From assembly GCF_902652985.1 (NCBI RefSeq), contig NC_047028.1, positions 1,116,001-1,180,000 of the forward strand: 64,000 nucleotides of DNA, written 5' to 3'. Below are positions 40,676 to 64,000 of the stretch, piece by piece. This stretch comes from Pecten maximus (taxonomy: Eukaryota). Made by a program: the position numbers and the translations under genes. Below the pieces are notes generated by a model. The model did no database searches. It was not told where the DNA came from and saw nothing but the letters and a program-made list of their open reading frames with translations. Every line of letters begins with the position of its first letter. Position 1 is the first letter of the stretch.

Positions 40676-41557
40676 AATCTTTGTCTGACTTAACACAGTT
40701 GAGAGTATAATCTAACAGCTTTTCGATAGATTACGTGTTTAAATGTCTTGCACTAGATATATGTGAAGCTCCGTTCTCTTTTGTGTGTGAATTATATATT
40801 CTAGAGATAACACAATGATACCTACCACTGGACACAGCCAGATGGATAACTCTCCAAAACAAATGTTGCGTATATAGAAATACCCATTCTTTTGTAACCT
40901 GTTGTCCTATGTTTAACTCATTTTACTCAAATGGACGTTATAGCTACACAGATGGACAAACAGGTTGTCAGTTTAAATCCAACCAAAAATGGAATGCATT
41001 ATTGTATATAACAAAGCATATATAATACTGTAGGTAAATATACACTGGGATGTTTGTATGATATCAGCAACTTATGACAACCTTCTCTATCGTCTGACAG
41101 GGTATGCTTGTAAACAGCTTCACGGTATGTGGGTTGGATAAGTGGTTTACCTCTGCGACATGTTCAACAAAAGGCCAATACAGTATATAAACATTGCCAC
41201 AGTGATGCGGATACAAATGATAATGATGGGATAATAAAAATCCTTCTTTTGACAAAATGACATTTTAATTGCGACATGTTTGAGAATCTCACCTGCGTCT
41301 GAGTTTAATGTGAAATTAAGATACATTGATACGTTCAGTGTATTTTCTAGCAGATCTAGGAGAATAAAAGAGTAAAATTGGTGAATTTTTAAAGATACTA
41401 AACAACATATTGAAGGGTTTGCATTTAAGGATTGATTATTTTGTTGCTTGCCTGGACTGTTGAGGGGGGGAAGTGAACCTCATACAAATGACACTAGAAT
41501 GAGATTAACCCAGCTTTATAGTATGATAATGTAATACATGTAAATTATTGACTTAAC

Positions 41558-41677
41558 GAGAGATATACTGACGATATGGAGGATTTTTATGACCTATACT
41601 GCAATATTCCAAACACTTCTTGGAATATTGCATTCTGGGTCATAAAAAATCCTCCATATACGACAGTAATTCTCTCT
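41558..41677. repeat. Left terminal hairpin (~120 bp)
   Basis: gagagatatactgacgatatggaggatttttatgacc...tgcaatattccaa / ttggaatattgca...ggtcataaaaaatcctccatatacgacagtaattctctc. Confidence 0.92.
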
Positions 41678-41794
41678 ACTGTATCTTGGTTTCAAATACA
41701 GAAGTGACATACCTTTCTTTAACTGCATTTGCTTGAGATTTTATCTTTTCAGGTTTTTTTGGACATCTTTCAATATATGTTGTTGATGATTCAT

Positions 41795-42120
41795 GGCTAG
41801 CCGGGTTGGTTTTCATGAAGTTATTGACTTTCGGTATGCTAGTATAGTATGTAAATGGCTAGCCGGGGTGGATTTCACGACGTTATTGACTTTCGGTATT
41901 CTAGTATAGTATGTAAATGGCTAACCGGGTTGGATGTCATGACGTCATTGACTTTCGGTATGCTAGTATAGTATGTAAATGGCTAGCCGGGGTGGATTTC
42001 ACGACGTTATTGACTTTCGGTATTCTAGTATAGTTTGTAAATGGCTAACCGGGTTGGATGTCATGACGTAATTGACTTTCGGTATGCTAGTATAGTGTGT
42101 AAATGGCTAGCCGGGTTTGT
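41795..42120. repeat. 62-bp tandem repeat in the left TIR (5 full units plus partial)
   Basis: ggctaRccggg heads at 41795, 41857, 41919, 41981, 42043 and 42105. Confidence 0.93.
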
Positions 42121-42139
42121 TTTCAAGTCATTATTTATC

Positions 42140-44205
42140 ATTTTGTCATGATTTTGTCATGAAATTGTCATTTTTGTCATGATTTTGTCATGCTTAGTCA
42201 TGGTTTTGTCATGATTTTGCCTTGTTTTGTCATGATTTTATCATTATGTCATGATTTGTCATGTTTTGTCATTTTATCATGATTTTTTCATGTTTGTCAT
42301 GATTGTAATGTTTGTCATGATTTTGTCATTTTTGTCATGGTTTGTCATGATTTTGTCATATTTTGTCATGATTTTGTCTTGTTTTGTCATGATTTTATCA
42401 TTATTTTATGATTTGTCATGTTTTGTCATGATTTTGTCATTTTGTCATGGTTTGTCATGATTTTGTCATGTTTAGTCATGGTTTTGTCATGATTTTGTCA
42501 TGATTTTGTCTTGTTTTGTCATGATTTTATCATTATGTCATGATTTGTCATGATTTTGTCATGTTTTGTCATTTTGTCATGATTTTTTCATGTTTGTCAT
42601 GATTGTAATGTTTTGTCATGATTTTGTCATTTTTGTCATGGTTTGTCATGATTTTGTCATGTTTAGTCATGGTTTTGTCATGATTTTGTCATGATTTTGT
42701 CTTGTTTTGTCATCATTTTATCATTATTTCATGATTTGTCATGCTTTTGTCATGTTTTGTCATTTTGTCATGATTTTTTCATGTTTGTCATGATTGTAAT
42801 GTTTTGTCATGATTTTGTCATTTTTGTCATGGTTTGTCATGATTTTGTCATGTTTTGTCATGATTTTGTCATGATTTTGTCTTGTTTTGTCATGATTTTA
42901 TCATTATTTTATGATTTGTCATGTTTTGTCATGATTTTGTCATTTTTGTCATGGTTGTCATGATTTTGTCATGTTTAGTCATGGTTTTGTCATGATTTTG
43001 TCATGATTTTGTCTTGTTTTGTCATCATTTTATCATTATTTCATGATTTGTCATGCTTTTGTCATGTTTTGTCATTTTGTCATGATTTTTTTCATGTTTG
43101 TCATGATTGTAATGTTTTGTCATGTTTTTTCCATGATTTTGACATTTTTGTCATGATTTGTCATGATTTTGTCATGATTTTGTCATTTTTGTCATGGTTT
43201 TGTCATGTTTAGTCATGATTTTGTCATGTTTTGTCATGATTTTGTCATGTTTTGTCATGATTTTATCATTATGTCATGATTTTGTCATGCTTTGTCATTT
43301 TGTCATGATTTTTCATGTTTGTCATGATTGTAACGTTTTGTCATGTTTTGTCATAATTTTGTCATTTATGTCATGTTTTGTCATGATTTTGTCATTTTTG
43401 TCATGATTTTGCTATGTTTTGTCATGTTTTGTCATGATTTTGTCACGTTTTGTCATGATTTTGTCATGTTTTGTCATTTGTTCATGATTTTGTCATGTTT
43501 TGTCATGATTTTGTCATAATTTTGTCATGTTCAGTCATGATTTTATCATTTTGTCATGATTTGTCACAACTTTGTCATGTTTTGTTATTTTGTCATTGTT
43601 GTCATTGTTGTCTTTATATCATGATTTTGTCATTTTTTATCATGATTTTGTCATGTTTTGTCATGTTTTGTCATTTTTTATAAAGTTTTTGTCATGTTTT
43701 GTCATGATTTTGTCATTTTTGTCATGATTTTGTCATGTTTTGTCATTTTTGTCATGTTTTGTCATGTTTTGTCATAATTTTGTCATTTTTGTCATGATTT
43801 TGTCATGTTTTGTCATCATTTTGTCATGATTTTGTCCTGTTTTGTAATGATTTCGTCATTATGTCATGATTTGTCATGATTTGTTATGATTTTGTCATGT
43901 TTTGTCATTTTTGTCATTTTTTCATGACTTTTTCATGTTTGTCATGATTGTAATTTTTTGTCATGTTTTGTCATGATTTTGTCATGTTATGTCATGATTT
44001 TGTCTTTTCTGTCATTTTTGTCATGCTTTTGTCATGTTTTGTCATTATTTGTCATGTTTTGTCATGATTTTGTCATGTTTTGTCATGATTTTGTCATGGT
44101 TTTCACTTGATTTTGTCATGATTTTGTCGTGATTTTGTCATTTTTGGCATGTGTTTGGCCTATTTTGTCATTTTTGTCATGTTTTGTCATTTTTGTCATG
44201 ATTTG
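42140..44205. repeat. 10/11-bp minisatellite (ttttgtcatg[a])n in the left TIR
   Basis: Direct reading. Confidence 0.97.
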
Positions 44206-44784
44206 ACATTATTCTTCGGAGAGGCATGATATTCTTCAATTACAGTTGTCTTGGAGATTCTATGATGTATACCAAAAAAAACATGGCAGCCATTACAATA
44301 GACTTCTGATTGAAATACAAGAATTCACATGACCCTGATGTGTTGAAAGATGAAATAAAAATTTGATCTATTTTTGGAATAAAGACAGTAAAAAAGAATC
44401 CTCTGTTCCAAGGAAAAAGTTGCCAACAAGTGTATAAAAGGAATCATCTTACAGGAAATATGTATCATTACTATGATGTTGTCAAATTCAGCATACACCA
44501 TGTTAAAAATCATTCAGTCTCCAATCAAATTTTACCTGACGTGGAAACTGAGAAAAAGCAAAAGCTGGATATCATTGATAATGTGCAACAAAACAAAAAA
44601 TGATTATTGGGAAGTAATAAATGATGTAGACCGTACATGTTTACGTGGAAAATTAGTTTGTGAAATATTTACCAAAGATTTATGTGAAGTGCAAAGAACC
44701 GATTCATTTCTTAAACAATTTGAACTGTTAGTAGCACATGAAAATGTATAAATAGCTTTTCAATGAATATATGAATAAGAAAAA

Positions 44785-45570
44785 ATGTCAAAAAAGCAGA
44801 AAGATTTTCTGAAGAAGATATGTTATGATCCAAAACATGTGTTGGGATTCACTGGCCCCAAAAGGTTGTATGAGGGTACATGTATAAAAAAGAAAAGCAA
44901 ATTGAAGAGAAGTCGATCACGGGTCACTGCTTGGTTGCAGAATTAAGATCCTTATAGTGTAAGACGATAAGTTAGACACAAAACACCAAAAGTCAAAACT
45001 CCTTTGGTGAGTGTGGACTACATGTGGGATGCTGATTTAGCAGATGTCTCCAATATCAAAGACTATAATGAAGGCATCACTTTCTTACTAGTTGTTGTGG
45101 ATTATTTTTCAAGTTATGCTTGGGTACTACCCCTTAAAAACAAGAAGGCTACCACAGTGTTGGAGGCTTTCAAAAAGATATTTGCAAAACGTCAGCCCAT
45201 CATCATCAGATCAGATCATGGAAAAGAGTTCTTAAGCAATGCATTTCAAAAGCATTGCAAAGCCATTGGGGTCACCCACATTGCAAGTCACAGTGCTCAT
45301 AAAGCTTCATTTGCTGAATCATTTATAGGGAAGTTGAAAAATATTTTGTACAGATACTTGCATTCCAATCAAACGTTTACATACGCTCAAGAATTACAAA
45401 AAGGTCTACAAATCAAAAGAAACGAAGTGGAAAATAGAAGACGTCTTAAAAGTTAAGAGAGCTAAAGGAAAGAAATTAGCGTTGTTTAGATGGTTAGGAT
45501 GGCCAAAAAAAACATTGATTCCTGGATAGATTATGATGACATTGAAGTGCCCATAAAAACTATAAATAAG
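44785..45570 (+). pseudogene. Maverick/Polinton rve (DDE) integrase with C-terminal chromodomain, disrupted
   Basis: MSKKQKDFLKKICYDPKHVLGFTGPKRLY is in frame with ORF 45004 across stops at 44944 and 44968. Catalytic motifs WDADL, IRSDHGKEF and AESF. An internal deletion precedes YAQELQK, then a frameshifted chromodomain KIEDVLKVK...LFRWLGWPKK..DSWI. Confidence 0.9.
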
Positions 45571-45598
45571 CTGAAAAAACACCAAAGTAAAGAAAACC

Positions 45599-46323
45599 AT
45601 GGCTTACGTGTGTCAATTTTGTTCTAAAACGTACACGTTGAAAAACTATCTGGATCAACATATCAGAAGAAAACATTTCAAAGATCTACGTGAAATACCG
45701 TGCTCATCAGCTGGCAAAATTACCTCTCAGAAGGAATTTGATATAGTTAATGTACCTGAACACATGTTACCCCCAGTACCTAGAGGACATTTCTTGCCCT
45801 GGAAACATCCCTTTACCTGTATCATAGCAGCTCCCACAGGATGTGGAAAAACAACGTTTGTGAAGAGGTTTATAGACAACATTCAACAGATGATGACTCC
45901 CATACCCGATAAAATCCTGTGGTGTTATGGAGAATATCAAACAATCTTGATAATTTGATAGTGATAGATGATTTGATGTCTGAAGTTAACTCTGACGTGA
46001 CGTCATTATTAAGAGTCATCATTGCAACATCAGCGTCATGTATATAGTTCAGAATTTATTTTGTCAGAGTAAAAAAACATAGAGACATCAGTTTAAATAC
46101 TCATTACATTGTTTTGATGAAAAATCCTAGAGATTCGTCACAGGTCAGGTGTTTGTCCCATGAGATGTTTCCAAGTAAAACTTTACTGATGGAAGCCTAC
46201 AAGGATGCTACTCTTCATCCTCATGGATATCTGTTAGTAGATTTGAAACAAAACACTCCTTCAGATCTCAGATTACGTACATGTATATTTCCTGGAGAGT
46301 ATCAGTTTGTGCATGTCCCCTAA
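45599..46323 (+). pseudogene. C2H2 zinc finger plus A32/FtsK-HerA-type DNA packaging ATPase, disrupted
   Basis: CQFC-x12-HIRRKH; Walker A region HPFTCIIAAPTGCGKTT; out-of-frame Walker B LIVIDDLM; YIVQNLF, ISLNTHYIVLMKNPRD, AYKDAT..PHGYLLVDL and RLRT motifs. Confidence 0.9.
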
Positions 46324-46384
46324 AAACTTATATATATATATGCTTCATGGAAGGTTAAGTTAAGGTAGATGTTGTTTGACGAAG

Positions 46385-46624
46385 ATGTCTTCATATCTGG
46401 AGAAACATTGTAAATACTTGGAGTATTTGTGCCAAGCTGAACCTTCTATACGCAAAGTCATCCTAGAAAAAGCCAGTAAAAGTTTCATATACTGTTTATG
46501 TGAGTGCATACAAAACATTCTACAACCTCCTGTAGACTCTTTCGTAAAATCCCTTCACCACATTGAGGGGGAAATGGCAAGTACTTTGCAACTTGAAGAT
46601 CTTCCAAAAAATGACTTTGTATGA
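46385..46624 (+). pseudogene. Small Maverick-type ORF (RKVIL..AS..FIYCLCECIQNIL), probably fused by deletion to the next gene
   Basis: The CECxxN(I/V)L motif downstream of the ATPase is recalled from animal Mavericks; not searched. Confidence 0.55.
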
Positions 46625-47419
46625 TCAGGATTTAATAAAATACCTTTCTAGACATCAACAATACAAACAGGATGGTTTAACACCCAAGGTAGTGAATACC
46701 ATCGAAAATTTTCCCAAAGATGACCTCCCACGTAAACTTGTTTTTGCAGAGTGTACCGAAAACTGCTTAACCTAAGACAGAAATGTTGATGGATAGATTA
46801 AAACAGGTAGTCCAGTGGAATGACAAAGGAGAATTTGGATATAAAGGTGCCCCGGTGATTTCAGGTTCTAATCTAGTGGATTAAGTGGGCAACGCTACAC
46901 GTCAAATATGAATACCTTTCTAACCGCTTTAAGGGATCTGAATGTCCCTCAGAGCTGGATGAGTAATAAAGAATATTTGGATAAAATACAAACTGTTGCC
47001 TCTACTCCTTTACCAACGATACGAGAGACTATACCATCTGGAGAAATTCTTTGGCTAGACCTCCAGTTACTCTTACATCTATGATGCCATCTCCAGTCAC
47101 CCCATTGGCGACATCTCAATCTACGCATACACCATCTCATGTTACCCCTTTGGCTACATATCAAGATTTTCATACACCGATACCATCTGGAGCTACCCCT
47201 TTGACTACATCTGAGAACACCCTCCTTTCTCCAACACAAATGGATTGGAAGGAATACAGTGATGAGAGTGGCTACAACACTTTTTCTAAACCCACTTCAC
47301 GATCAACGTTACCTAGAAAACCAGTTTTAGACATGCTAAAGAAATGGAAAAAAATAAGCCTACATATTAGAGCCCAGATAAAGTATAAAAGTCATCGAAA
47401 CACTCCACTTCAATCATAA
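46560..47419 (+). pseudogene. Disrupted conserved Maverick-type hypothetical protein with S/T/P-rich C-terminus
   Basis: Fragments LYDQDLIKYL, QWNDKGEFGYKG..ISGSNLVD* and FLTALRDLNVPQSWMSN in shifting frames. Confidence 0.55.
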
Positions 47420-47651
47420 TAAAATGACTAACAATACCAGTGGAAACTCAAATTGGTTGTTTGTTTGGTACCAAACTGCCAAGAGAAGAAATTATTTTCT
47501 TTTGTCAAGTGTGCATCATTAAAATTTTATATTATCATCTGCTGTAGCATCTATCATCTGAGCATAGGTCATCCACTAGAGTCTCTGTGGGTTTCTTTGT
47601 TGAGCAGTGGTGTTGGCTATCTAATACCTAGTCCTACTCTGAAAAAGAAAG

Positions 47652-47890
47652 ATGTTTTACATAACCCTTCCTAGTAATAGTTCAATGGAGTAATTTCAAG
47701 ACAATACATTAACAACTGACAAGACACGTTTGCCTCAACCTCTAGATCTCAAAGGTTGTTGGGAGATGGGTCTAGCTGAAATTCAATATCCTCACTCTTG
47801 GTTCAACGTACGTGAAGGTGAATTGTGGTTGGAGATGATCGTTGGTGGCAGTGACAATGTTGCTAATGTTGAATTTGATCCTGGAGCTGC
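47652..47890 (+). pseudogene. N-terminal part of the Maverick minor capsid (penton-like) protein, truncated by the right-hand array
   Basis: MFYITLPSNSSME*FQDNTLTTDKTRLPQPLDLKGCWEMGLAEIQYPHSWFNV; stop at 47691; breaks off after EFDPG. Confidence 0.8.
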
Positions 47891-47896
47891 ATTAAT

Positions 47897-49200
47897 CATG
47901 ACAAAACATGACAAAAGCATGACAAATCATGAATAAAATCATGATAAAAATGACAACATCATGACAAAACATGACAAAATCATGACAAAACCTGACAAAA
48001 CATGACAAAAACATGACAAAGCATGACAAAACATGACAAAATCATGACAAAACTGGCAAAAAACATGACAAATCATGACAAAATCATGGCAAAACATGAC
48101 AAAACATGACAAAGCCAGGACAAAACCATGACAAAACCATGACAAAACATGACAAAATCATGACGAAAATGACAAATCCAGACAAAACATGACAAAACCA
48201 GGACAAAACCATGACAACACATGACAAAATCAGGACAAAAATGACAAAAGCATGACAAATCATGAATAAAATCATGATAAAAATGACAAAATCATGACAA
48301 AACATGAAAAAAATCATGACAAAACCTGACAAAACATGACAAAAACATGACAAAGCATGACAAAACATGACAAAATCATGACAAACTGGCAAAAACATGA
48401 CAAATCATGACAAAATCATGGCAAAACATGACAAAATCATGACGAAAATGACAAATTAAGACAAAACATGACAAAACTAGGACAAAACCATGACAAAACA
48501 TGACAAAATCATGACGAAAATGACAAATCAAGACAAAACATGACAAAATCATGACAAAACCTGACAAAACATGACAAAAACATGACAAAGCATGACAAAA
48601 CATGACAAAATCATGACAAAACTGGCAAAAAACATGACAAATCATGACAAAATCATGGCAAAACATGACAAAACATGACAAAGCCAGGACAAAACCATGA
48701 CAAAACCATGACAAAACATGAAAAAATCATGACGAAAATGACAAATCCAGACAAAACATGACAAAACCAGGACAAAACCATGACAACACATGACAAAATC
48801 AGGACAAAAATGACAAAAGCATGACAAATCATGAATAAAATCATGATAAAAATGACAAAATCATGACAAAACATGAAAAAATCATGACAAAACCTGACAA
48901 AACATGACAAAAACATGACAAAGCATGACAAAACATGAAAAAATCATGACAAACTGGCAAAAACATGACAAATCATGACAAAATCATGGCAAAACATGAC
49001 AAAATCATGACGAAAATGACAAATTAAGACAAAACATGACAAAACTAGGACAAAACCATGACAAAACATGACAAAATCATGACGAAAATGACAAATCAAG
49101 ACAAAACATGACAAAACTAGGACAAAACCATGACAAAACATGACAAAATCAGGACAAAAATGACAAAAACATGACAAAACATGAAAAAAATCAGGACAAA
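47897..49200. repeat. 10/11-bp minisatellite (catgacaaaa[t])n in the right TIR, reverse complement of 42140-44205
   Basis: Direct reading; internal ~569-bp duplication. Confidence 0.97.
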
Positions 49201-49482
49201 AATGATAAATAATGACTTGAAACCAAACCCGGCTAGCCATTTACATACTATACTAGCATACCGATAGTCAATAACGTCATGAAATCCAACCCGGCTAGCC
49301 ATTTACATACTATACTAGCTTACCGAAAGTCAATAACGTTATGAAAACCAACCCGGCTAGCCATGAATCATCAACAACAGATGTTGAAAGAAGATGTCCA
49401 AAAGAACCTGAAAAGATAAAATCTCAAGAAAATGCAGTTAAAGAAAGGTATGTTACGTCTGTATTTGAAACCAAGATACAGT

Positions 49483-49619
49483 AGAGAGAATTACTGTCGT
49501 ATATGGAGGATTTTTTTATGACCAAGAATGCAATATTCCAAGATGTCTACCTTCTGGTAGACATCTTGGAATATTGCATTCTGGGTCATAAAATCCTCCA
49601 TATCGTCAGTATATCTCTC
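49483..49619. repeat. Right terminal hairpin (~137 bp)
   Basis: Perfect 27-bp inner stem agaatgcaatattccaagatgtctacc (49525-49551), loop ttct, then ggtagacatcttggaatattgcattct; imperfect outer stem. Confidence 0.95.
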
Positions 49620-49895
49620 CTTTCCCACGGTGATATAGTAAACCACAGCTTCGTTAAATTGGCACGGAGAAAATATATGAAATGTAATATATTTCAAATA
49701 AAAAGAAAGTTACAAAACACATCTTCAACACTGCAAGATTAATAACACAAATGTGGTATAGAAAACACAGTGTATCAAATAGCTTATCAACCAGAACAAA
49801 TCATTCATCCAAGAAGAAAAATGTGTTCTTTCCTCCAGTCAATAAAAATATTAGTGTATGATAACTGGTGAATAGGCAGCAATCGACGAGAGCAG

Positions 49896-50640
49896 TGACA
49901 TTAACCATACTTTGACGCCATCTGTTAGCTTGACATTAACCATACTTTGGCGACATCTGTTGGATTGACATTAACCATACTTTGGCGCCATCTGTTGGCT
50001 TGACATTAACCATACTTTGACGCCATCTGTTGGCTTGACATTAACCATACTTTGGCGCCATCTGTTGGCTTGACATTAACCATACTTTGGCGCCATCTGT
50101 TGGCTTGACGTTAATCATACTTTGGCGCCATCTGTTGGCTTGACATTAACCATACTTTGACGCCATCTGTTGGCTTGACATTAACCATACTTTGACGCCA
50201 TCTGTTGGCTTGACATTAACCATACTGTGACGCCATCTGTTGGCTTGACATTAATCATACTTTGGCGCCATCTGTTGGCTTGACATTAACCATACTTTGA
50301 CGCCATCTGTTGGCTTGACATTAACCATACTTTGGCGCCATCTGTTGGCTTGACATTAACCATACTTTGGCGCCATCTGTTGGCTTGACATTAACCATAC
50401 TTTGACGCCATCTGTTGGCTTGACATTAACCATACTGGGACGCCATCTGTTAGCTTGACATTAACCATACTTTGGCGCCATCTGTTGGCTTGACGTTAAC
50501 CATACTTTGGCGTCATCTGTTGGCTTGACGTTAACCATACTTTGGCGCCATCTGTTGGCTCGACATTAACCATACGTTGGCGCCATCTGTTGGCTTGACG
50601 TTAATCATACTTTGGCGCCATCTGTTTGGTCGACATTAAC
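49896..50640. repeat. Tandem array, 35-bp unit, ~21 copies, each with a CTCF-like motif
   Basis: tgacattaaccatactttggcgccatctgttggct; minus strand reads ccaacagatggcgcca. Confidence 0.96.
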
Positions 50641-50761
50641 CAAATTGATATAAACAGTTGACTTGATATTAACCAAATTGGTGTAAACATTTGACTTGAT
50701 ATTAACCAAATTGGTGTAAACAGTTTACTTATTAACCAAATTGATGTCTTCTGTTCTATAA

Positions 50762-51025
50762 AGACTGGTAAACGTTGACACTTTTTGGGGATAAGAGACT
50801 GGTAAACGTTGGCACTTTTTGGGGATAAGAGACTGGTAAACGTTGGCACTTTTTGGGGATAAGAGACTGGTAAACGTTGGCACTTTTTGGGGATAAGAGA
50901 CTGGTAAACGTTGACACGTTTTGGGGATAAGAGACTGGTAAACGTTGACACTTTTTGGGGATAAGAGACTGGTAAACGTTGACACTTTTTGGGGATTAGA
51001 GACTGGTAAACGTTGACACTTTTTG
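50762..51025. repeat. Tandem array, 34-bp unit, ~7.5 copies
   Basis: aagagactggtaaacgttgacactttttggggat. Confidence 0.95.
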
Positions 51026-51058
51026 AGATAAGGTTTCGCCAATCATCGGAGATAGTCG

Positions 51059-53380
51059 TTACTGGGTTCTGTCGTAAGTACAGAGTAGTGTTGTATGGTT
51101 GGTAGTAGTTAGGATGTTATAGCCATAAAAAAATGCATTGTTGTTTGATCCTTCTGGTAATGAACGTGCAAAGATGTCTGTAACAGTCTGTAATGTACTC
51201 GTACAGACATCTTCCTTCGGGGAGGACGAGTCTTTCAATTGTAAACGCCCCAGGTCAGGCAGGCAAAACGTTTCCTGTTCTGCTAGCGATTTAGAGCTAC
51301 AGGTATAGTGGAAATGTCATAAAAAATATACCAAAGGTTCTGATATAGGACAACCTATATTACAGCTTACAGCTATACCTGAGTTTAAACAGAGTAACTG
51401 TGAACTATGTTACAGCTATATCCAAGGTCGAATAGAGTATTTGTAAACTATGATCTATGGTCGATAACGGGGAACTTAGTATCTTTTTGAAAAGTTTCCA
51501 TTTTATCAGAGAAGATATCAAATATGGAATTCCGCCAAGAGTTAAAACAAAACTAGGGCACGAGCCTCACAAAAAGACAATAGTTTCAGCAATAACGACA
51601 GGCACGTAACAGATAGAGCACTAGTCTGACACAGTGTTATAGCGATCATTTCAAGTTATTCCCCTGGAAATCTTAACAGACAGATAGTGCCCACACAAAC
51701 GTGTTTGTTTTGCATTTTACTAAAGATGAGTAGTGCCATCACGTCACGGAGTAAAGCTGCTTTGTTGAAAGATTCAGAAATGGAGGAATCTACCCCAGGA
51801 ATAGTGTCTTTGTTCAAGTCTAACAAAAATCATTTTATGTAATCCATAATACCATTCTTTTACGATTCTTCTACAAGATTTTAGGGCAGTGCAATACAAC
51901 CTACCTGTTGGTCAACTGTTCAGGTGTGTCCCAGTCTTCTGATGTGCAGCTGTGTCCCAGTCTTTTGATGTTCAGGTGTGTCCCAGGCTTCTAATGCTCA
52001 GGTGTGTCCCAATCTTCTTAAGCTCAGGTGTGTCCTAATCTTCTGATGTTCAGTTGTGTCCCAATCTTCTGATGTTCAGTTGTTTCCCAGTCTTCTAATG
52101 CTCAGTTGTGTCCCAATCCTCGAATGTTCAGGTGTGTCCCATTCCTCGGATGTTCAGGTGTTTCCCAATCCTCGGATGTTCAGGTGTGTCCCAGTCTTCT
52201 GATGTTCAGTTGTGTCCCAGTCTTCTGATGTTCAGGTGTGTCCCAATCCTCGGATGTTCAGGTGTGTCCCAATCCTCGGATGTTCAGGTGTGTCCCAATC
52301 CTCGGATGTTCAGGTGTGTCCAAATCCTCGGATGTTCATGTGTGTCCCTGTCTTCGGATGTTCAGGTATGTCCCAATCCTCGGATGTTCAGGTCTATTGT
52401 GTGATGGTGATGACAAACAGACATACGATACGTAAATAAGGTCTGGCATGACAGATGAATACGTACGTGTTATTCTCATAAATTTGCATACAATCACAGA
52501 CATTTGCGTAATTGAACATAAGATTTGAAAGCATTATTTACAACACACATATTTTATATTTTTCCAAATCCTGGGTGCACATGCACATAAACAGCAGACA
52601 TCAATAAACTACGAGTAAGTAAGTATCTTGTTAAACGCCTTGATGATCCGCCTATTGCTAGATTTCGTCTAGTTTTATGTGGTTCGTCCTATTATAAGTA
52701 ATATTACATCAACATGCTCGGTCGCCTTCAAGGTCACTGACGAATCCTGAAAGGTTACAATAGCTGTGTGTTATAGTTTAATCAATTGTGGGTCGCTCTA
52801 TATATCTAACTCCCTTTTATATAGAAACCAATTAATGACTTGGTTGCCTGTTATATAATCTTTAATTAGTACCTATCCCTTGAAATGTTCCATGTATGGT
52901 TTTGGTATTATTAGACGTCATATCAATAGCTATGATCATTTAAGCTGGCCTCCTCTGTGTACGAGATGGAAGCGTGTAGTTGATGTGTGCTTGTTTATGA
53001 CGCTGTAGTACGTTCGTGTGTTTGTCTCCTTGTGACAGCGCGTTAGTGATACCCACTTTATAGTGCGATCCCACTGAAGTGTACTGACAATTTTCTGTGA
53101 TTTGAGCTGTGTTATGTTCTATATTAACATATATAATATTGATAGCATAAAAATAACATTTATATCAATATATATTGCTATAGACGTTATGAGCACGGGA
53201 AAGTGTGTTCTTGAAATACATTTCTTTAATACTCAATGATTCGCTATAATAAGCATAAATCGTTTCCTTACCTGCAGCAATTTGATCTTTTACAAATTGA
53301 GATTTTGACACACCGGTTGTTGATATATAGCATGCAATGATTATTCGTTGGATGGATATTCGGCTTCTATTTTCAGGGTT
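51059..53380 (-). CDS. Possible 3' exons of an unidentified gene (approx. 53272-53380, 51853-51904, 51059-51296)
   Basis: GT-AG junctions chain in phase to NPENRSRISIQRIIIACY...QIAAG RLYCTALKSCRRIVKEC SKSLAEQETFCLPDLGRL...TYDRTQ*. No family recognised and no upstream exons found. Confidence 0.3.
51917..52393. repeat. Tandem array, 26-bp unit, ~18 copies
   Basis: tgttcaggtgtgtcccaatcctcgga and variants. Confidence 0.95.
52903..53088 (-). mobile_element. Old 3' fragment of the SINE family at 9551-10087
   Basis: tcatttaa..ggcctcc, gttcgtgt..gtctccttgtga and tttatagtgc..cactgaag are collinear with 9570-9750. Confidence 0.7.
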
Positions 53381-53714
53381 CTGCAAGTATGTACTAGATT
53401 TCACCACCTCGATGGATTTCTACACCAATAGGGTATACTTGTATATCACACTGACTGTGTCACTGGAAAGTTTACCTTTGATTTTATGTTCCGTGTTAAG
53501 GGGATACAACATGCCCCCTGAATACATTTGATTTAATTATAAGCTGTACTCTCACGTAGGTCTGGCGTTCGACGGGTAATCTTTTTCTCGCTGGATAGCA
53601 TTTCTCGAGAGTTTTCAATCCAATTAACTTTCTTGTAAGGGTTGCATAATGATATGCGAATTTTATCAGTTCATTCTATTAACAAAACTCAGACGAACGA
53701 TTATAAAATTCAAA

Positions 53715-54363
53715 TATATCATGTCGCATTTATATAATATAGAACTGGGCTATTCCAGAACGTCAATACGATTGTAAATATACCATGTCGTATTTAAATA
53801 ATCTAGAACTGATACATACATGTACCCGAACGTCAATACGACAGTAAACATACCATGTCATATTTATATAGTCTAGAACTGGTACATACCAGCACGTCAG
53901 TACGACAGTAAATATACCATGTCATATTTATATAGTCTAGAACTGGTACATACCAGAACGTCAGTACGACAGTTAATATACCATGTCATATTTATATAGT
54001 CTAGAACTGGTACATACCAGCACGTCAGTACGACAGTTAATATACCATGTCATATTTATATAGTCTAGAACTGGTACATACCAGCACGTCAGTACGACAG
54101 TAAATATACCATGTCATATTTATATAGTCTAGAACTGGTACATACCAGCACGTCAGTACGACAGTTAATATACCATGTCATATTTATATAGTCTAGAACT
54201 GGTACATACCAGCACGTCAGTACGACAGTAAATATACCATGTCATATTTATATAGTCTAGAACTGGTACATACCAGAACGTCAGTACGACAGTTAATATA
54301 CCATGTCATATTTATATAGTCTAGAACTGGTACATACCAGAACGTCAGTACGACAGTTAATAT
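53715..54363. repeat. Tandem array, 64-bp unit, ~10 copies
   Basis: aatataccatgtcatatttatatagtctagaactggtacataccagcacgtcagtacgacagta. Confidence 0.95.
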
Positions 54364-57091
54364 ATTACATATCATCGCTAATCAATAAGGAAACATAGAA
54401 TACAGGTACCTGGAACTATCAGTTACTCAATGTGGTTTCAGTCAGTGTAGATTAACTAATCAAATAAATTGATACGTGTATTGTTGTTTACCGGACGTTC
54501 AATATATACCAACTTCCGGTTTATTTGACTACTAAATGTATATTTCCAGCTGTTGCATTAGATTTGGTCAACCACGTCAGACTTGCCATTCTTAAGTCAC
54601 TTAATGGCGAACTCAAATCGGTCACCTTTTTGTGACAATTACAATGCGTTTTTTCTTAACTTTGTTTTCCTGTTGAACAATATTTACCCAGTCAGTGACC
54701 TAGTAAGTGTTTCTTTTTGTTTTCCAGGTGGATTATTTAAAATGAAGATTTGTTAATACCTATATGAGGATTGTATATACCTTAAATGTTGGAAAGAATA
54801 GTAAGTCCTTCCAAGGATAAAAGGAATATAGCTCTTCGCATGGATATTGTATGGATCCTAAAACTAACTTTGTTTTGGTGAGTGGACATAATGTTTACCT
54901 GACATTTTTTCTTTTCGGATTTTAATATTTTCGTTAACACATTTGTTTTATTTAGATCGATGCTTAATGGTTTCACCTTCCTATCTGTTGCTACCAAGTT
55001 ACCACACACATGTCACGTGGTTCCAAAACATATGTTTATCATCATGATGCGAAATGGATTTTTACTGTTTCTGATTACAGTTTGGACAAAAAGTCTTGAT
55101 ACAATTTTGATAGTTGAATTGGCTGATGGACATTGTCTGTGTTCATCACGTAGCTTATATATGTAATAGCATGGTGACAAATATCATGTAACAGAGCCCA
55201 TACAGAAAAGTAAGTTACAGTCGCCGTCGTTCAAATAGTGATTGAAATAAGTATATATATCTTGTCTGGTGAAGGTTGTAAAAACGAATAAAAGTCAAAT
55301 TATTCAACATCAAAAAACCAAGGACAAAATTATACTTCAGCACATTATGAAGCATGTTTCACAAGTTTTGAAGTATGAGTGTGAATAAACTTTGGTATAA
55401 CACAACCAGTGTAAGATTTAATCGTAACATTTCGGTGACCATACACTGTCGCCTTCAGACAAATGGTTAGCTGAGTTCATGTACACTGAGGTTTTGAGTT
55501 TAAGATACTGTAATAAAGTCTTTTCGTCCACACCATAACCTGTTTATACTGAGGCGGCAAATAGTGTACACGTCGATTCGGAGGACAAGAGTTTGTTAAT
55601 TGTCTAAAGCCCCCCTCGTCCCGGTTTATAACTGACCCGTTTATATAAAATTATGAAAACGAAAACGTCAACACCAAATCACAAAAATCACTAACACTCA
55701 GTTATAAATAATGGATCCGATCTACGTACGAACTTTTCTGTATAGCCAAAAATGAAACCGAATATGTATACAGTAGAATATCAATGTTAGTTTAGGATGT
55801 GTTTTCAAAGCCCGTTTTTAAAGAAGAAACACCCGCCTCTACCTCTCGTCGCTCCAACATTGTTATTATACAAATGAACAGAGTTATGACCCGTGATGAA
55901 AAATGATTGACCACATTCCAACATTTCTATTTAAAACAGCAGCGAAACATCTACTTACATATAAAATCCTTCATCATCTTATATGTACATGTATGTATGT
56001 ATGTGAATGAATTGATATGTCTTGTTCAAAATAATTAATACGGTTTCAATGGTATGTACAGTTTGTACATTGTATACTGGTTGTTTCAAATTGTTGGCAG
56101 CGTTAACATTGCAGTAGAACGAAATATTTAGAATTATTGCTGCTGTGGTGCTTTAACATAAATCGTTAAAAATGGTGACAAATGTCATCAGTTTATACAC
56201 ACAGAACGGGTAAACAGCATGTTACAATGTATATCAAGTATACAGCGTGTGGGAACTAATACATTGTTACATGATATATTATGAACCACTTTCAGTGGAG
56301 TTAATATATGCACTTGTACATTGTAGTGGGAATGTGCAGAGGGAATTTCCATATTACATCTATATAGTTATCAGTATCACTGTGAAACACCTAGGTTGTA
56401 TTCGTGCTTTAAACCGTAACATATATAGATTCTGTACAGATTGTGAAGTTATTTCCTCCGACACATATATCTATATTTCAATGTTCTTTTTCATATGTCG
56501 CCATGTGAATCTAAATATAACCCAATTTAAGTTTGAATTATGATTTCGTTAACATTTCGGTATTTTTCTCGTTTTCTCAAAGGTCTCCGCTTAATAAGGT
56601 TTTATTCTGATTTTGTCTCTTTATCAACTTTTTAATCAAAATGACGGTTTTGTTTGAATTTTGGTATAAAACACAACATTGTTCATCACTTAATTCCTAT
56701 GACGTGAAGATCATTATGTATAAATATAACGTACTCACTAACTTCGAGCTATCGGGTATCATATACATAATAACCAACAACGGAATTATCCAACTAAAAC
56801 GAGAGAGTTATTTTAATAGGCGTGCATAATGAGAAAACTGCACTTCTGCTAGGAACGTATCCATGTCTGTTACACATTGGTACTTAACTCTTTAATAGAA
56901 TCTGTTATTCTGTTGTGCAACATCATGTACATGTAAACCGAATAATGAATAAATTTCACCATACAGCTGTTTCGTCACTTTAGGATTCGTCAATGATCAG
57001 GAGCCAGTGTATGCAAAAGCGGTGATAATGTAGTTTTAATGAATGCTGAAATGTAAAAAGAAGTGTTAGGGAGTATATCGAGATTACTCAG

Positions 57092-59466
57092 GTTAACCAA
57101 ACATTATCTACTGATGTGTTAACCTAACACAACCTACTGATGTGTTAACCTAATACAACATACTGATGTGTTAACCTAACACAATCTACTGGTGTGTTAA
57201 CCTAACACAACCTACTGATGTGTTAACCTAACACAACCTACTGATGTGTTAACCTAACACAACCTACTGATGTGTTAACCTAATACAACATACTGATGTG
57301 TTAACCTAACACAACCTACTGATGTGTTAACCTAAACAGTCTACTGATGTGTTAACGTAACACAACCTACTGATATGTTAACCTAACACAATCTACTGAT
57401 GTGTTAACGTAACACAACCTACTGATGTGTTAACCTAAACAACCTACTGATGTGTTAACCTAAACAATCTACTGATGTGTTAACGTAACACAACCTACTG
57501 ATGTGTTAACGTAACACAACCTACTGATGTGTTAACCTAACACAATATACTGATGTGTTAACCTAACACAACCTACTGATGTGTTAACCTAAACAACCTA
57601 CTGATGTGTTAACCTAAACAATCTACTGATGTGTTAACCTAACACAACCTACTGATGTGTTAACCTAACACAACCTACTGATGTGTTAACCTAACACAAT
57701 CTACTGATGTGTTAACCTAACACAATATACTGATGTGTTAACCTAACACAACCTACTGATGTGTTAACATAACACAACCTACTGATGTGTTAACCTAACA
57801 CAATCTACTGATGTGTTAACCTAACACAACCTACTGATATGTTAACCTAACACAACCTAATGATGTGTTAACCTAACACAATATACTGATGTGTTAACCT
57901 AACACAATCTACTGATGTGTTAACCTAACACAACCTACTGATGTGTTAACCTAACACAACCTACTGATGTGTTAACCTAACACAACCTACTGATGTGTTA
58001 ACCTAACACAACCTACTGATGTGTTAACCTAACACAACCTAATGATGTGTTAACCTAACACAACCTACTGATGTGTTAACCTAACACAACCTACTAATGT
58101 GTTAACCTAACACAACCTACTGATGTGTTAACCTTACACAACCTACTGATGTGTTAACCTCACACAACCTACTGATGTGTTAACCTAAACAACCTACTGA
58201 TGTGTTAACCTAACACAACCTACTGATGTGTTAACCTAACACAATATACTGATGTGTTACCCTAACACAATATACTGATGTGTTACCCTAACACAACCTA
58301 CTGGTGTGTTAACCTTACACAATCTACTGAAGTGTTAACCTTACACAATCTACTGAAGTGTTAACCTTACACAATCTACTGGTGTGTTAACCTTACACAA
58401 TCTACTGAAGTGTTAACCTTACACAATCTACTGGTGTGTTAACCTTACACAATATACTGATGTGTTAACCTAACACAACCTACTGATGTGTTAACCTAAC
58501 ACAATCTACTGATGTGTTAACCTAACACAACCTACTGATGTGTTAACCTAACACAACCTACTGATGTGTTAACCTAACACAACCTACTGATGTGTTAACC
58601 TAACACAACCTACTGATGTGTTAACCTAAACAATCTACTGATGTGTTAACCTACCACAATCTACTGGTGTGTTAACCTAACACAACCTACTGATGTGTTA
58701 ACCTAACACAACATACTGGTGTGTTAACCAAACACAACCTACTGATGTGTTAACCTAACACAATCTACTGATGTGTTAACCTAACACAATCTACTGATGA
58801 ATTAACCAAACACAACCTACTGATGTGTTAACCTAACACAACATACTGGTGTGTTAACCTAACACAACATACTGGTGTGTTAACCAAACACAACCTACTG
58901 ATGTGTTAACCAAACACAACCTACTGATGTGTTAACCTAACACAACCTACTGATGTGTTAACCAAACACAACCTATTGATGTGTTAACCTAACACAACCT
59001 ACTGATGTGTTAACCAAACACAACCTACTGATGTGTTAACCTAACACAATCTACTGATGTGTTAACCTAACACAATTTAATGATGTGTTAACCTAACACA
59101 ACCTACTGATGTGTTAACCTAACACAATCTACTGATGTGTTAACCTAACACAACCTACTGATGTGTTAACCTAACACAACCTACTGATGTGTTAACCTAA
59201 CACAATATACTGATGTGTTAACCTAACACAACCTATTGATGTGTTAACCTAAACAACCTACTGATGTGTTAACCTAACACAACCTACTGATGTGTTAACC
59301 TTACACAATATACTGATGTGTTAACCTAACACAACCTACTCTTGTGTTAACCTAACACAACCTACTGATGTGTTAACCTAACACAACCTACTCATGTGTT
59401 AACCTAACACAATCTACTGATGTGTTAACCTAACACAATCTACTGATGTGTTAACCTAATCACAAT
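57092..59466. repeat. Tandem array, 26-bp unit (24-bp variants), ~90 copies
   Basis: tactgatgtgttaacctaacacaacc. Confidence 0.97.
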
Positions 59467-59744
59467 CATGGTTTGTTTTGTATAATTGAAAACAAGGAGT
59501 CGGCTACCACATGAAATGTCATAAAAATGTCTGTTTGGATTCGTACAGTATAGTGCGAGGTCAAAGAAGCGCCAGCTTTGGAGTTCGAATATGCATGAGA
59601 TACAAAATGTACTCACCACCCGCATGAAATACCATCCACCCCTATGAAATACTCATTTATCTTCATTAAATGTTCATATACCCGAAAAAATACCCATCTG
59701 CCCTCATTAAAAGCTCATTAAAAGCTTATCTACCCTAATACAAT

Positions 59745-62700
59745 ACTCATCCACCTCTATAAAACACTCATCTACATTGTACTTTCATAAAACACTCATC
59801 TACCTTCACAAAACACTCATCTACCACTATAAAACACTATCTACCACTATAACACACTCATCTACCACTATAAAACGCTCATCTACCACTATAAAACAAT
59901 CATCTACCGCTATAAAACACTATCTACCACTATAAAATACTCATCCACCGCTATAAAATGCTCATGTTCCCCTATAAAACTCTCATCTACATTGTACTTT
60001 CATAAAACACTCATCTACCACTATAAAACACTCATCTACATTGTACTTTCATAAAACACTCATCTACCGCTATAAAACACTCATCTACCGCTATAAAACA
60101 CTCATCTACCACTATAAAACACTCATCTACCGCTATAAAACACTCATCTACCACTATAAAACACTCATTTACCACTATAAAACACTCATCTACCACTATA
60201 AAACACTCATCTACCGCTATAAAACACTCATCTACCACTATAACACACTCATCTACCACTATAAAACACTCATCTACCACTATAAAACACTCATCTACCG
60301 CTATAAAACACCCATCTACCACTATAAAACACTCATCTACCACTGTAACACACTCATCTACCACTATAAAACACCCATAATCCACTATAAAACACTCATC
60401 TACCACTATAAGACACTCATTTACTACTATAAAACACCCATCTACCACTATAAAACACTCATTTACCACTATAAAACACTCATCTACCACTTTAAAACAC
60501 TCATCTACCGCTATAAAGCACTCATCTACCACTATAAAACACTCATCTACCACTATAAAACACTCATCTACTGCTATAAAACACTCATCTACCACTATAA
60601 AACACCCATAATCCACTATTAAACACTCATCTACCGCTATAAAACACTCATCTACCACTATAAAACACTAATATACCACTATAAAACACTCATCTACCAC
60701 TATAAAACACTCATCTACCATTATAAAACACTCATCTACCATTATAAAACACTCATCTATCACTATAAAACACTCATCTACCACTATAAAACACCCATAA
60801 TCCACTATAAAACACTCATCTACCACTATAAAACACTCATCTACCACTATAAAACACTCATCTACCACTATAAAACACTCATCTACCACTATAAAACACC
60901 CATAATCCACTATAAAACACTCATCTACCACTATAAAACACTCATCTATCACTATAAAACACTCGTCTACTACTATAAAACACTCATCTACCGCTATAAA
61001 ACACTCATCTACCACTATAAAACACTCATCTACCGCTATAAAATACTCATTTACCTTCATTAAATGTCATATACCCTAATACAATACTCATCCACCGCTA
61101 TAAAATGCTCATTTTCCCCTATAAAACTCTACATTGTACTTTCATAAAACACTCATCTAACACTATAAAACACTCTTCTACATTGTACTTTCATAAAACA
61201 CTCATCTACCTCTATAAAACACTCATCTACCGCTATAAAACACTCATCTACCACTATAAAACACTCATCTACTGCTATAAAACACTCATCTACCACTATA
61301 AAACACCCATAATCCACTATAAAACACTCATCTACCGCTATAAAACACTCATCTACCACTATAAAACACTCATATACCACTATAAAACACTCATCTACCA
61401 CTATAAAACACTCATCTATCGCTATAAAACACTCATCTACCACTATAAAACACCCATAATCCACTATAAAACACTCATCTACCGCTATAAAACACCCATA
61501 ATCCACTATAAAACACTCATCTACCACTATAAAACACTCATCTACCACTATAAAACACTCATCTACCGCTATAAAACACTCATCCACCACTATAAAACAC
61601 TCATCTACCATTATAAAACACTCATCTACCACTATAACACACTCATCAACCACTATAAAACACTCATCTACCACTATAAAACACTCATCCAACACTATAA
61701 AACACTCATCTACCATTATAAAACACTCATCTACCACTATAAAACACTCATCTACCACTATAAAACACTCATCTACCGCTATAAAACACTCATCTACCAC
61801 TATAAAACACTCATCCACCACTATAAAACACTCATCTACCGCTATAAAACACTCATCTACCACTATAAAACACTCATCTACCACTATAAAACACTCATCT
61901 ATCACTATAAAACACTCGTCTGCTACTATAAAACACTCATCTACCGCTATAAAACACTCATCTATCACTATAAAACACTCGTCTACTACTATAAAACACT
62001 CATCTACCGCTATAAAACACTCATCTACCACTATAAAACACTCATCTACCGCTATAAAACACTCATCTACCACTATAAAACACTCATCTACCGCTATAAA
62101 ACACTCATCTACCACTATAAAACACTCATCCACCACTATAAAACACTCATCTACCATTATAAAACACTCACTACCACTATAAAACACTCATCTACCACTA
62201 TAAACACTCATCTACCGCTATAAAACACTCATCTACCACTATAAAACACTCATCCACCACTATAAAACACTCATCTACCGCTATAAAACACTCATCTACC
62301 ACTATAAAACACTCATCTGCCACTATAAAACACTCATCTACCACTATAAAACACTCATCTACCATTATAAAACACTCATCTACCACTATAAAACACTCAT
62401 CTACCACTATAAAACACTCATCTACCGCTATAAAACACTCATCTACCACTATAAAACACTCATCCACCACTATAAAACACTCATCTACCGCTATAAAACA
62501 CTCATCTACCACTATAAAACACTCATCTACCACTATAAAACACTCGTCTGCTACTATAAAACACTCATCTACCGCTATAAAACACTCATCTATCACTATA
62601 AAACACTCGTCTACTACTATAAAACACTCATCTACCGCTATAAAACACTCATCTACCACTATAAAACACTCATCTACCGCTATAAAACACTCATATACCA

Positions 62701-64000
62701 CTATAAAACACTCATCTACCGCTATAAAACACTCATCTACCACTATAAAACACTCATCCACCACTATAAAACACTCATCTACCATTATAAAACACTCATC
62801 TACCACTATAAAACACTCATCTACCACTATAAAACACTCATCTACCGCTATAAAACACTCATCTACCACTATAAAACACTCATCCACCACTATAAAACAC
62901 TCATCTACCGCTATAAAACACTCATCTACCACTATAAAACACTCATCTACCACTATAAAACACTCATCTACCACTATAAAACACTCATCTACCACTATAA
63001 AACACTCATCTACCACTATAAAACACTCATCTACCGCTATTAAACACTCACCTACCGCTATAAAACACTCATCTACCGCTATAAAATACTCATTTACCTT
63101 CATTAAATGTCATATACCCTAATACAATACTCATCCACCGCTATAAAATGCTCATTTTCCCCTATAAAACTCTCATCTACATTGTACTTTCATAAAACAC
63201 TCATCTACCACTATAAAACACTCATCTACATTGTACTTTCATAAAACACTCATCTACCGCTATAAAACACTCATCTACCATTATAAAACACTCATCTACC
63301 GCTATAAAACACTCATCTACCACTATAACACACTCATCTACCACTATAAAACACTCATCTACCACTATAAAACACTCATCTACCACTATAAAACACTCAT
63401 CCACCACTATAAAACACTCATCTATCGCTATAAAACACTCATCTACCACTATAAAACACCCATCTACCACTATAAAACACTCGTCTACCACTATAAAACA
63501 CTCATCTACCACTATAAAACACTCATCTACCGCTATAAAACACTCATCTACCACTATAACACACTCATCTATCGCTATAAAACACTCATCCACCACTATA
63601 ACACACTCATCTACTACTATAAAACACTCATCTACTACTATAAAACACTCATCTACCGCTATAAAACACTCATCTACCACTATAAAACACTCATCTACCG
63701 CTATAAAACACTCATCTACCACTATAAAACACTCATCTACCGCTATAAAACACTCATCTACCACTATAAAACACTCATCTACCGCTATAAAACACTCATC
63801 TACCACTATAAAACACTCATCTACCGCTATAAAACACTCATCTACCACTATAAAACACTCATCTACCGCTATAAAACACTCATCTACCACTATAAAACAC
63901 TCATCCACCACTATAAAACACTCATCTACCATTATAAAACACTCACTACCACTATAAAACACTCATCTACCACTATAAACACTCATCTACCATTATAAAA
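59745..64000. repeat. Tandem array, 21-bp unit (ctataaaacactcatctacca), with kb-scale higher-order duplication; runs off the window end
   Basis: 7-aa periodic spurious ORFs. The unique spacer tactcatttaccttcattaaatgtcatataccctaatacaatactc recurs at ~61044 and ~63086 (diverged at ~59650). Confidence 0.97.

Follow-up and report, generated by a model that had tools for sequence, protein, structure and literature searches.

A hairpin-ended Maverick family of the scallop Pecten maximus whose capsid and polymerase genes appear to lie on separate units

A 64,000-nucleotide stretch of the Pecten maximus genome (RefSeq assembly GCF_902652985.1, contig NC_047028.1, positions 1,116,001 to 1,180,000; hereinafter the window) contains at 41558-49619 an element in which remnants of Maverick/Polinton genes lie between two long palindromic ends. 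What kind of element is this, and how might it be copied? The initial annotation of the locus saw no target-site duplication (TSD) and offered two answers: a Maverick-related lineage with hairpin ends and a different replication or integration route, or a Maverick fragment captured by two hairpin-bearing elements as a composite transposon. A survey of its relatives points, with modest confidence, to another answer, namely that the window element is the decayed remnant of a capsid/integrase unit, in a Maverick family that in this assembly keeps capsid genes and protein-primed DNA polymerase (pPolB) on separate units.

The copy survey covered 1.4 Mb of fetched DNA from this one assembly and yielded 144 family ends (112 of type A, 23 of type B and 9 of type C), which form 41 left-right pairs. 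Nineteen pairs enclose capsid-block genes only, three enclose pPolB only, nineteen enclose neither and none encloses both. A fourth pPolB-only unit has a damaged right end and the TSD GCTGTT. All core genes within one pair of terminal inverted repeats (TIRs) were found in 0 of 41 pairs, the only point at which the family falls outside the usual definition of a Maverick. Genome-wide, there are 44 family loci of the major capsid protein (MCP; 77-100% identity, 97 of 211 candidates scored) and 10 of pPolB (all 91 candidates scored), with some small contigs duplicating chromosomal loci and one pPolB locus being an uninformative 1.2-kb contig. The closest MCP and pPolB loci of the family are 1.6 Mb apart, and in other Maverick families of the same assembly the two genes are adjacent in 5 of 7 fetched loci.

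Each kind of unit has a layout of its own. The capsid unit (about 10.5-11.7 kb, insertions excluded) contains, in order, integrase, packaging ATPase, two open reading frames (ORFs), minor capsid protein, pVII-like protein, MCP and protease, with long TIRs outside. Fifteen pairs representing all three end types were taken for border distances, and 3 were not measurable; the TIR edge lies 479-544 bp from integrase in 12/12 measured capsid units, and protease lies 197-253 bp from the TIR edge in 11/12. The polymerase unit contains a TIR, a small ORF and a PC4-like gene (both facing outward), a satellite, a Pro/Ser-rich ORF, pPolB and a short TIR, a layout that is common, with deletions, to four independent insertions. 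A 17.5-kb type-B copy was considered as a full-length element and discarded; its extra 5.3 kb has transposase-like ORFs and lacks pPolB.

Capsid and polymerase units are of similar age, the median p-distance being 0.024 among 27 MCP copies and 0.035 among 5 pPolB copies. Variants shared by MCP copies are mostly synonymous (synonymous:nonsynonymous 32:13 shared and 70:130 private), which indicates that selection acted on the capsid genes during multiplication of the unit; the corresponding ratios are 18:18 and 49:133 for integrase and 7:5 and 34:48 for pPolB (5 copies). The nineteen pairs with neither gene set consist of TIR and polymerase-unit arm sequence, and 11 of them are 72-100% self-inverted. 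They appear to be snap-back derivatives; a third gene class was looked for in them, and their content proved to be arm sequence. On the whole, we consider it rather likely that the family has a two-part Maverick genome with mutually dependent units. Elsewhere in the assembly, TIR-bounded elements of 6.5-9.8 kb with another pPolB type occur at C5:1513k, C8:32026k and C10:24283k (L134-L145). Among ORFs of at least 200 amino acids, these carry pPolB alone, or pPolB with one or two ORFs and integrase, seemingly without capsid genes.

The window element has type C ends and contains the following features:

41552-41557: left flank CTTAAC, a probable decayed 6-bp TSD (4/6 match with the right flank)
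41558-41676 (+): left terminal hairpin, starting with GAGAGA, with a 2-nt mismatch at positions 7-8 and a shortened tip
41677-41792 (+): unique part of the TIR, common to capsid and polymerase units
41793-42125 (+): 62-bp tandem repeat, 5.4 copies, within the long TIR
42140-44213 (+): 10/11-bp satellite (ATTTTGTCATG), within the long TIR
44779-45579 (+): rve integrase, broken, with an internal deletion (PF00665, E 8.6e-13; 89% identical to a sister copy)
45575-46320 (+): C2H2 finger and packaging ATPase (IVa2/A32-like), broken (profile and sister-copy comparison)
46364-46525 (+): small conserved ORF, first half, presumably PW-like
46523-47356 (+): ORF, frameshifted, presumably PZ-like
47643-47894 (+): ORF, 5' part, presumably minor capsid-like
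47897-49209 (-): 10/11-bp satellite of the right TIR
49220-49364 (-): 62-bp repeat of the right TIR, 2.3 copies
49365-49483 (-): unique part of the right TIR
49484-49619 (-): right terminal hairpin, 136 nt
49620-49625: right flank CTTTCC, a probable decayed TSD

The labels PW, PZ, pVII-like and minor capsid are those that we take to fit gene order and motifs; these ORFs have no profile match. In most matched segments, identity between the gene block and its sister copies is 75-96%. Near 47895 a deletion fuses the minor capsid-like ORF to the satellite and removes the rest of the block, including MCP and protease. Integrase and ATPase remnants are present and, as the initial annotation stated, no polymerase, MCP or protease is left in the 64-kb window. 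The family MCP has 99% identity to a protein whose source labels it Pecten maximus, and 76% and 69% identity to the MCPs of Argopecten and Mizuhopecten. Around the element, dense unrelated tandem arrays with units of 14-64 bp (55 rows) occupy 94-36183 and 49896-64000, and a 151-codon open frame without Pfam match lies at 39865-40320 (-).

Integration of the family is that of an ordinary Maverick. Perfect 6-bp TSDs flank 30 of the 33 scorable pairs (8 of the 41 pairs are not scorable), so the reported lack of a TSD does not hold for the family. Two of the remaining three pairs match at 4/6, one of them being the window element, whose flanks are probably a decayed TSD; the third matches at 2/6, with its TSD 0.6 kb farther out, beyond an inverted duplication. 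The TIRs (0.35-2.6 kb) start with GAGAGA, and exact matches across the genome number 88 for one end motif and 22 for a second end type. Contigs from two public runs (11 and 9) leave the element at the identical terminal base into many flanks. It is this constancy, together with the perfect TSDs, that indicates integration of the ordinary kind. PF00665 scores over the cut-off in the window element and in a sister copy, as do PF04665 (packaging ATPase) and PF00770 (protease) in the family. The family MCP has no direct Pfam match and was assigned through Atlas clusters at 0.98, in which 14-30% of members carry PF21738; one homologue with 55% identity is over the Pfam cut-off. The family is thus a Maverick with TSD. 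The initial annotation would have taken a 6-bp TSD and pPolB as marks of an ordinary Maverick, and both were found; the element is nevertheless not ordinary, because its hairpin is conserved and its genes are divided over two units.

Both ends of the window element form long, imperfect hairpins, as had been described: the left one (119 nt) has a folding energy of -38.9 kcal/mol (z-score -14.0) and the right one -58.2 kcal/mol (z-score -21.6), and 0 of 200 shuffles are as stable in either case. Compared with the right hairpin, the left one has lost about 17 nt from the tip. Outside the repeats the two TIRs are identical at 222/234 positions, and their homology ends at the outer GAGAGA, in agreement with the earlier observation that it stops at the hairpin edge. 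Both TIRs also bear the 62-bp repeats and the 10/11-bp satellite.

Across the family, the hairpin is 127-136 nt long in three end types with different stem sequences. Specifically, type B copies, whose MCP is 99% identical, have an unlike stem but share the hairpin's length, its start and, at positions 7-8, the 2-nt mismatch. This basal mismatch is present in 110 of 112 complete ends. Among 59 of the 104 distinct complete ends, mostly one per insertion (55 of type A and 4 of type C), compensating changes occur in 20 of 51 stem pairs. For the 6-bp segment beside the basal mismatch, the pairing score of 83 type-A ends is 391, against a mean of 312 and a maximum of 335 in 2000 shuffles, relatedness being uncontrolled. 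Selection very probably maintains the hairpin as a structure. In other families, seven TIR-bounded elements, two with a VSR motif, have AGTAG- or TATAGT-like ends without such a hairpin.

Inversion of the whole hairpin, the flip and flop forms raised by the initial annotation, was not seen (0 against 88 exact matches; 0 of 112 complete ends). One-sided ratios hold for three mismatches of the stem (20:0, 18:0 and 19:0). Five loop sequences occur in both orientations (24:7, 4:3, 6:1, 3:1 and 11:11). When the two ends of one copy are compared, 17 of 26 pairs have matching loops and 2 have inverted ones; in the other 7 the loops differ in another way. Inversion is therefore rare and confined to the tip. 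The 11:11 ratio of type B was rejected as proof of flipping in every round, because 10 of the 11 ATTT loops come from one lineage. At the right end of C263 a patch of the inner arm has been converted to the outer. A single head-to-head junction at C6:13116600 is as expected from 3' fold-back and extension; in this region (C6:13116530-13116780, L014/L076), about 75 bp of inverted inner TIR is joined to the hairpin, one arm of which is mostly deleted. Four host-duplicated ends with the same flank lie at C17:24349k-24536k (L038-L040); the loop is inverted in one of them, so a tip flip may arise after integration or in assembly. At C10:3120367-3132800 (L239-L240), the two ends are flip and flop forms for the roughly 15-20 bp nearest the tip; on the right, an inverted duplicate of 0.5 kb of the left flank precedes half a hairpin and the TSD.

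The family replicase is pPolB, with a match to PF03175 (E 2.6e-28) inside TSD-bounded units having family ends. Of the replicases that the initial annotation had listed, pPolB was thus found, and no HUH protein, protelomerase, tyrosine recombinase or junction resolvase was seen among the scanned ORFs of bounded units, no genome profile search having been made. The family pPolB is of the VSR-insert type by motif (the DUF559 match is below cut-off), and the insert is possibly a nuclease. The insert was also considered as the cause of the hairpin and dismissed, because the VSR motif also occurs in two one-piece relatives that have ends of AGTAG type and no hairpin. The terminal-protein (TP, D1) and vOTU domains are kept. 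The N-terminal part, translated with X at one stop, has homologues among the N-termini of intact pPolB (E to 1e-24), and S81 and C130 are the sole invariant columns in an alignment of 50 such N-termini. In the predicted structure (pLDDT 83.7), S81 closes helix 2 and precedes strand 4. A passage in PMC11161782 places the linking residue of the terminal protein between helix 2 and strand 4 and relates the terminal protein to the Y-family polymerase fold. Y-family polymerase chains, including little-finger domains, make up 11 of the 50 fold matches listed (Z 3.6-5.0, root-mean-square deviation 3-5 Å, about 80 residues aligned), matches that are weak alone and do not stand above unrelated rows; a fold search against viral models gave no match at E 0.001. 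S81 is a candidate linking serine. Given the homology of the TP domain, the invariant S81 and its position in the model, protein priming is probably kept. On the basis of the kept domain and serine, the hairpin was also rejected as a substitute for protein priming.

Metagenome contigs contain possible relatives. Contig L200 (7990 bp) encodes pPolB with a VSR motif and three other ORFs of at least 120 amino acids, and has a 109-bp TIR match; its positions 1-75 form a branched (two-eared) hairpin from the first base (z-score -5.6), and it resembles a small polymerase-only unit. Contig L188 also has a hairpin at its end. Among 86 metagenome loci, 48 of them at least 5 kb, 3 ends are folded at z < -3.5, a count that shows little because contigs break at repeats. 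Single-protein scans of viral contigs gave no match, and an alignment search gave 6 distant loci.

A mechanism can be proposed from these features. On either unit, the pPolB of the polymerase unit would start from its own terminal protein at the outer (GA)3, displacing one strand whose ends would fold into hairpins. Because of the fixed 2-nt mismatch, the outer arm would be recognised as the true end, and the inner copy of the end motif would not serve as origin or integrase site. The second strand would then be primed or restarted through fold-back extension or a template switch at the hairpin, and this step might occasionally produce the tip inversion, arm-to-arm conversion, fold-back junction and giant palindromic derivatives. 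In such a system, copying of both unit types would fall to the polymerase unit, and their integration and packaging to the capsid unit, which would provide integrase and particle proteins for all three kinds (capsid, polymerase and palindromic). Use of the hairpin for priming is possible rather than probable.

Several observations weigh against the division into two units or against this mechanism. A TSD-bounded type-B element at C17:11616648-11626396 (L286) joins a PC4 gene to an MCP 3' end and protease, so pieces of both modules are able to occupy one molecule. Its PC4 gene is 74% identical to that of the polymerase unit, occurs once in the genome and adjoins a divergent PZ-like ORF in opposite orientation; it may be the trace of an unseen partner unit with type-B ends. 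Type B is the youngest capsid lineage, yet this assembly yielded no polymerase unit whose ends are of that type. All family pPolB copies examined are broken, and their selection signal is weak (7:5 shared, 5 copies). The basal mismatch is absent in 2 of the 112 ends, which are one insertion represented twice. The sole fold-back junction might have arisen in the chromosome, and only integrated copies, no free or hairpin-primed DNA, were observed. From contigs of four public runs, which give no strand or end state, a one-piece form could be neither demonstrated nor dismissed. The survey of units covers a single assembly, in which 97 of 211 MCP candidates were scored.

Alternative explanations concern different steps, and their probabilities are not expected to sum to one. 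A one-piece master of about 20 kb might exist outside the assembly (in other animals, as free virus, or lost), with the capsid-only, polymerase-only and palindromic units as its non-autonomous deletion derivatives. Such derivatives are often more numerous than their masters, and both the C17 element, with its PC4 gene and MCP/protease pieces on a single molecule, and the type-B capsid units, partnerless here, fit this idea. A length of 20 kb is also inside the vertebrate Maverick range of 12.7-24.6 kb (PMC8097293). We find such a master somewhat unlikely, since none of the 10 pPolB loci is linked to any of the 44 MCP loci, the borders are the same across three end types, MCP shows purifying selection in polymerase-less copies, and the divergent, opposite PZ-like ORF next to PC4 fits a recombinant of two units. 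It is unlikely that the capsid unit is independent of its polymerase unit and that its 3' hairpin primes a polymerase of the host or of a helper virus, the scheme put forward for palindrome-ended protist virophages. Palindromes do accompany non-pPolB elements in Halocafeteria (10.64898/2026.07.28.741278), and the youngest capsid lineage has no matching pPolB unit; however, the pPolB units share the ends and the approximate age of the capsid units, the terminal-protein serine is invariant, and no resolvase or nickase gene was seen among the scanned ORFs of the capsid unit.

The hairpin might instead be roleless, an old inverted duplication of the end whose symmetry is maintained by template switching during copying. 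Conversion alone gives co-varying arms, such as the converted patch of C263, and the seven other TIR-bounded pPolB/Maverick elements function without a hairpin. We regard this as quite unlikely, because a length of 127-136 nt is constant in three end types with unlike stems, palindromes this large are prone to deletion, and blind copying would erase the mismatch at positions 7-8, which 110 of 112 ends keep while neighbouring bases co-vary. A replicon of parvovirus or poxvirus type, with covalently closed or self-primed ends resolved each round and another replicase or integration route, could account for the five loop sequences in both orientations and the one fold-back junction. It is very improbable and largely refuted by the lack of whole-hairpin inversion, the one-sided stem mismatches, the same loop at both ends in 17 of 26 pairs (inverted in 2), the single lineage behind 10 of 11 ATTT loops, and the ordinary TSD, integrase and terminal protein. 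Hardly any credence is left for the composite transposon of the initial annotation: the 19 of 41 pairs without core genes, which might seem to suit it, are TIR and polymerase-unit arm sequence, mostly palindromes, and 19 TSD-flanked pairs from independent insertions bound one gene block at fixed distances. Its other proposal survives as to a Maverick lineage with conserved hairpin ends and falls as to the route, since an rve integrase and a 6-bp TSD mark integration as ordinary, and a pPolB with a terminal-protein domain serves as replicase.

The organisation to be compared with known systems is that of capsid and polymerase genes on separate, hairpin-ended units in this assembly. Parvovirus hairpins, above all the left end of minute virus of mice with its single orientation, are imperfect, 100-140 nt long and marked by a fixed asymmetry that distinguishes the arms, and they need an HUH nickase (NS1/Rep). 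The scallop ends differ in that they are integrase substrates with TSD, and no HUH nickase was seen among the scanned ORFs. For the virophages and polinton-like viruses of Halocafeteria seosinensis (bioRxiv 10.64898/2026.07.28.741278), terminal palindromes beside TSDs have been described and a hairpin-priming model has been proposed; these differ in their protist host and 52-nt palindromes and are mostly non-pPolB elements, and the passages of the preprint considered here report no segmentation, compensating changes or fixed mismatch. More than 100 natural end variants of the scallop family would provide a test of this 2026 model, with protein priming probably kept and a whole hairpin that never inverts.

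Mollusc Mavericks/Polintons (Polintoviricetes) with VSR-type pPolB2 (Jeong et al. 2023, PMC10748475; vertebrate survey PMC8097293) share with the scallop family the rve integrase, packaging ATPase, adenain protease and double jelly-roll MCP, a pPolB with TP, vOTU and the VSR insert that Jeong et al. described for molluscs, the 6-bp TSD and a dinucleotide-repeat end. The scallop family differs in its 130-nt terminal hairpin, its split into capsid-block and pPolB units and its end register, (GA)3 as against (AG)3/(AGT)2 in PMC8097293. Mavericks are described as one-piece, plain-ended elements. The words 'hairpin' and 'palindrom' occur 0 times in PMC10748475 and PMC8097293, and 'hairpin' in 10.1101/2022.05.25.493380, considered as a precedent, denotes protein beta-hairpins. 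Neither a segmented Maverick nor a hairpin-ended animal Maverick was found in literature listings, which do not extend to subscription journals, Repbase entries or bioRxiv supplements; in the passages considered, PMC11296320 and 10.64898/2026.10.13.758929 discuss replicase exchange, not segmentation. Terminal palindromes are thus already published for protist virophages, and segmentation was not found in print. The methods passages of PMC8097293 and PMC10748475 demand pPolB and integrase inside one TIR pair, so a two-part family would be overlooked or filed as junk.

A two-segment relative of Polintons is known in the Bidnaviridae. Bombyx mori bidensovirus (PMC4061559) has two linear segments with shared terminal repeats and a Polinton-derived pPolB on one of them; it differs in its single-stranded DNA, its parvovirus-type capsid, its lack of integrase and ATPase, and ends stated to be non-hairpin. 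A single jelly-roll capsid around single-stranded DNA and an S3H helicase characterise bidnaviruses; the gene set of the scallop family is of Maverick type. We tentatively propose a segmented scallop polintovirus with two hairpin-ended segments, one for capsid and integrase and the other for polymerase and PC4, that reassort ends and partners and are copied by combining protein priming with hairpin fold-back, a living model of the passage from Polinton to bidnavirus, with possible protist kin in L200. If true, it would be a segmented member among the double jelly-roll DNA viruses and a natural bridge to the bidnaviruses.

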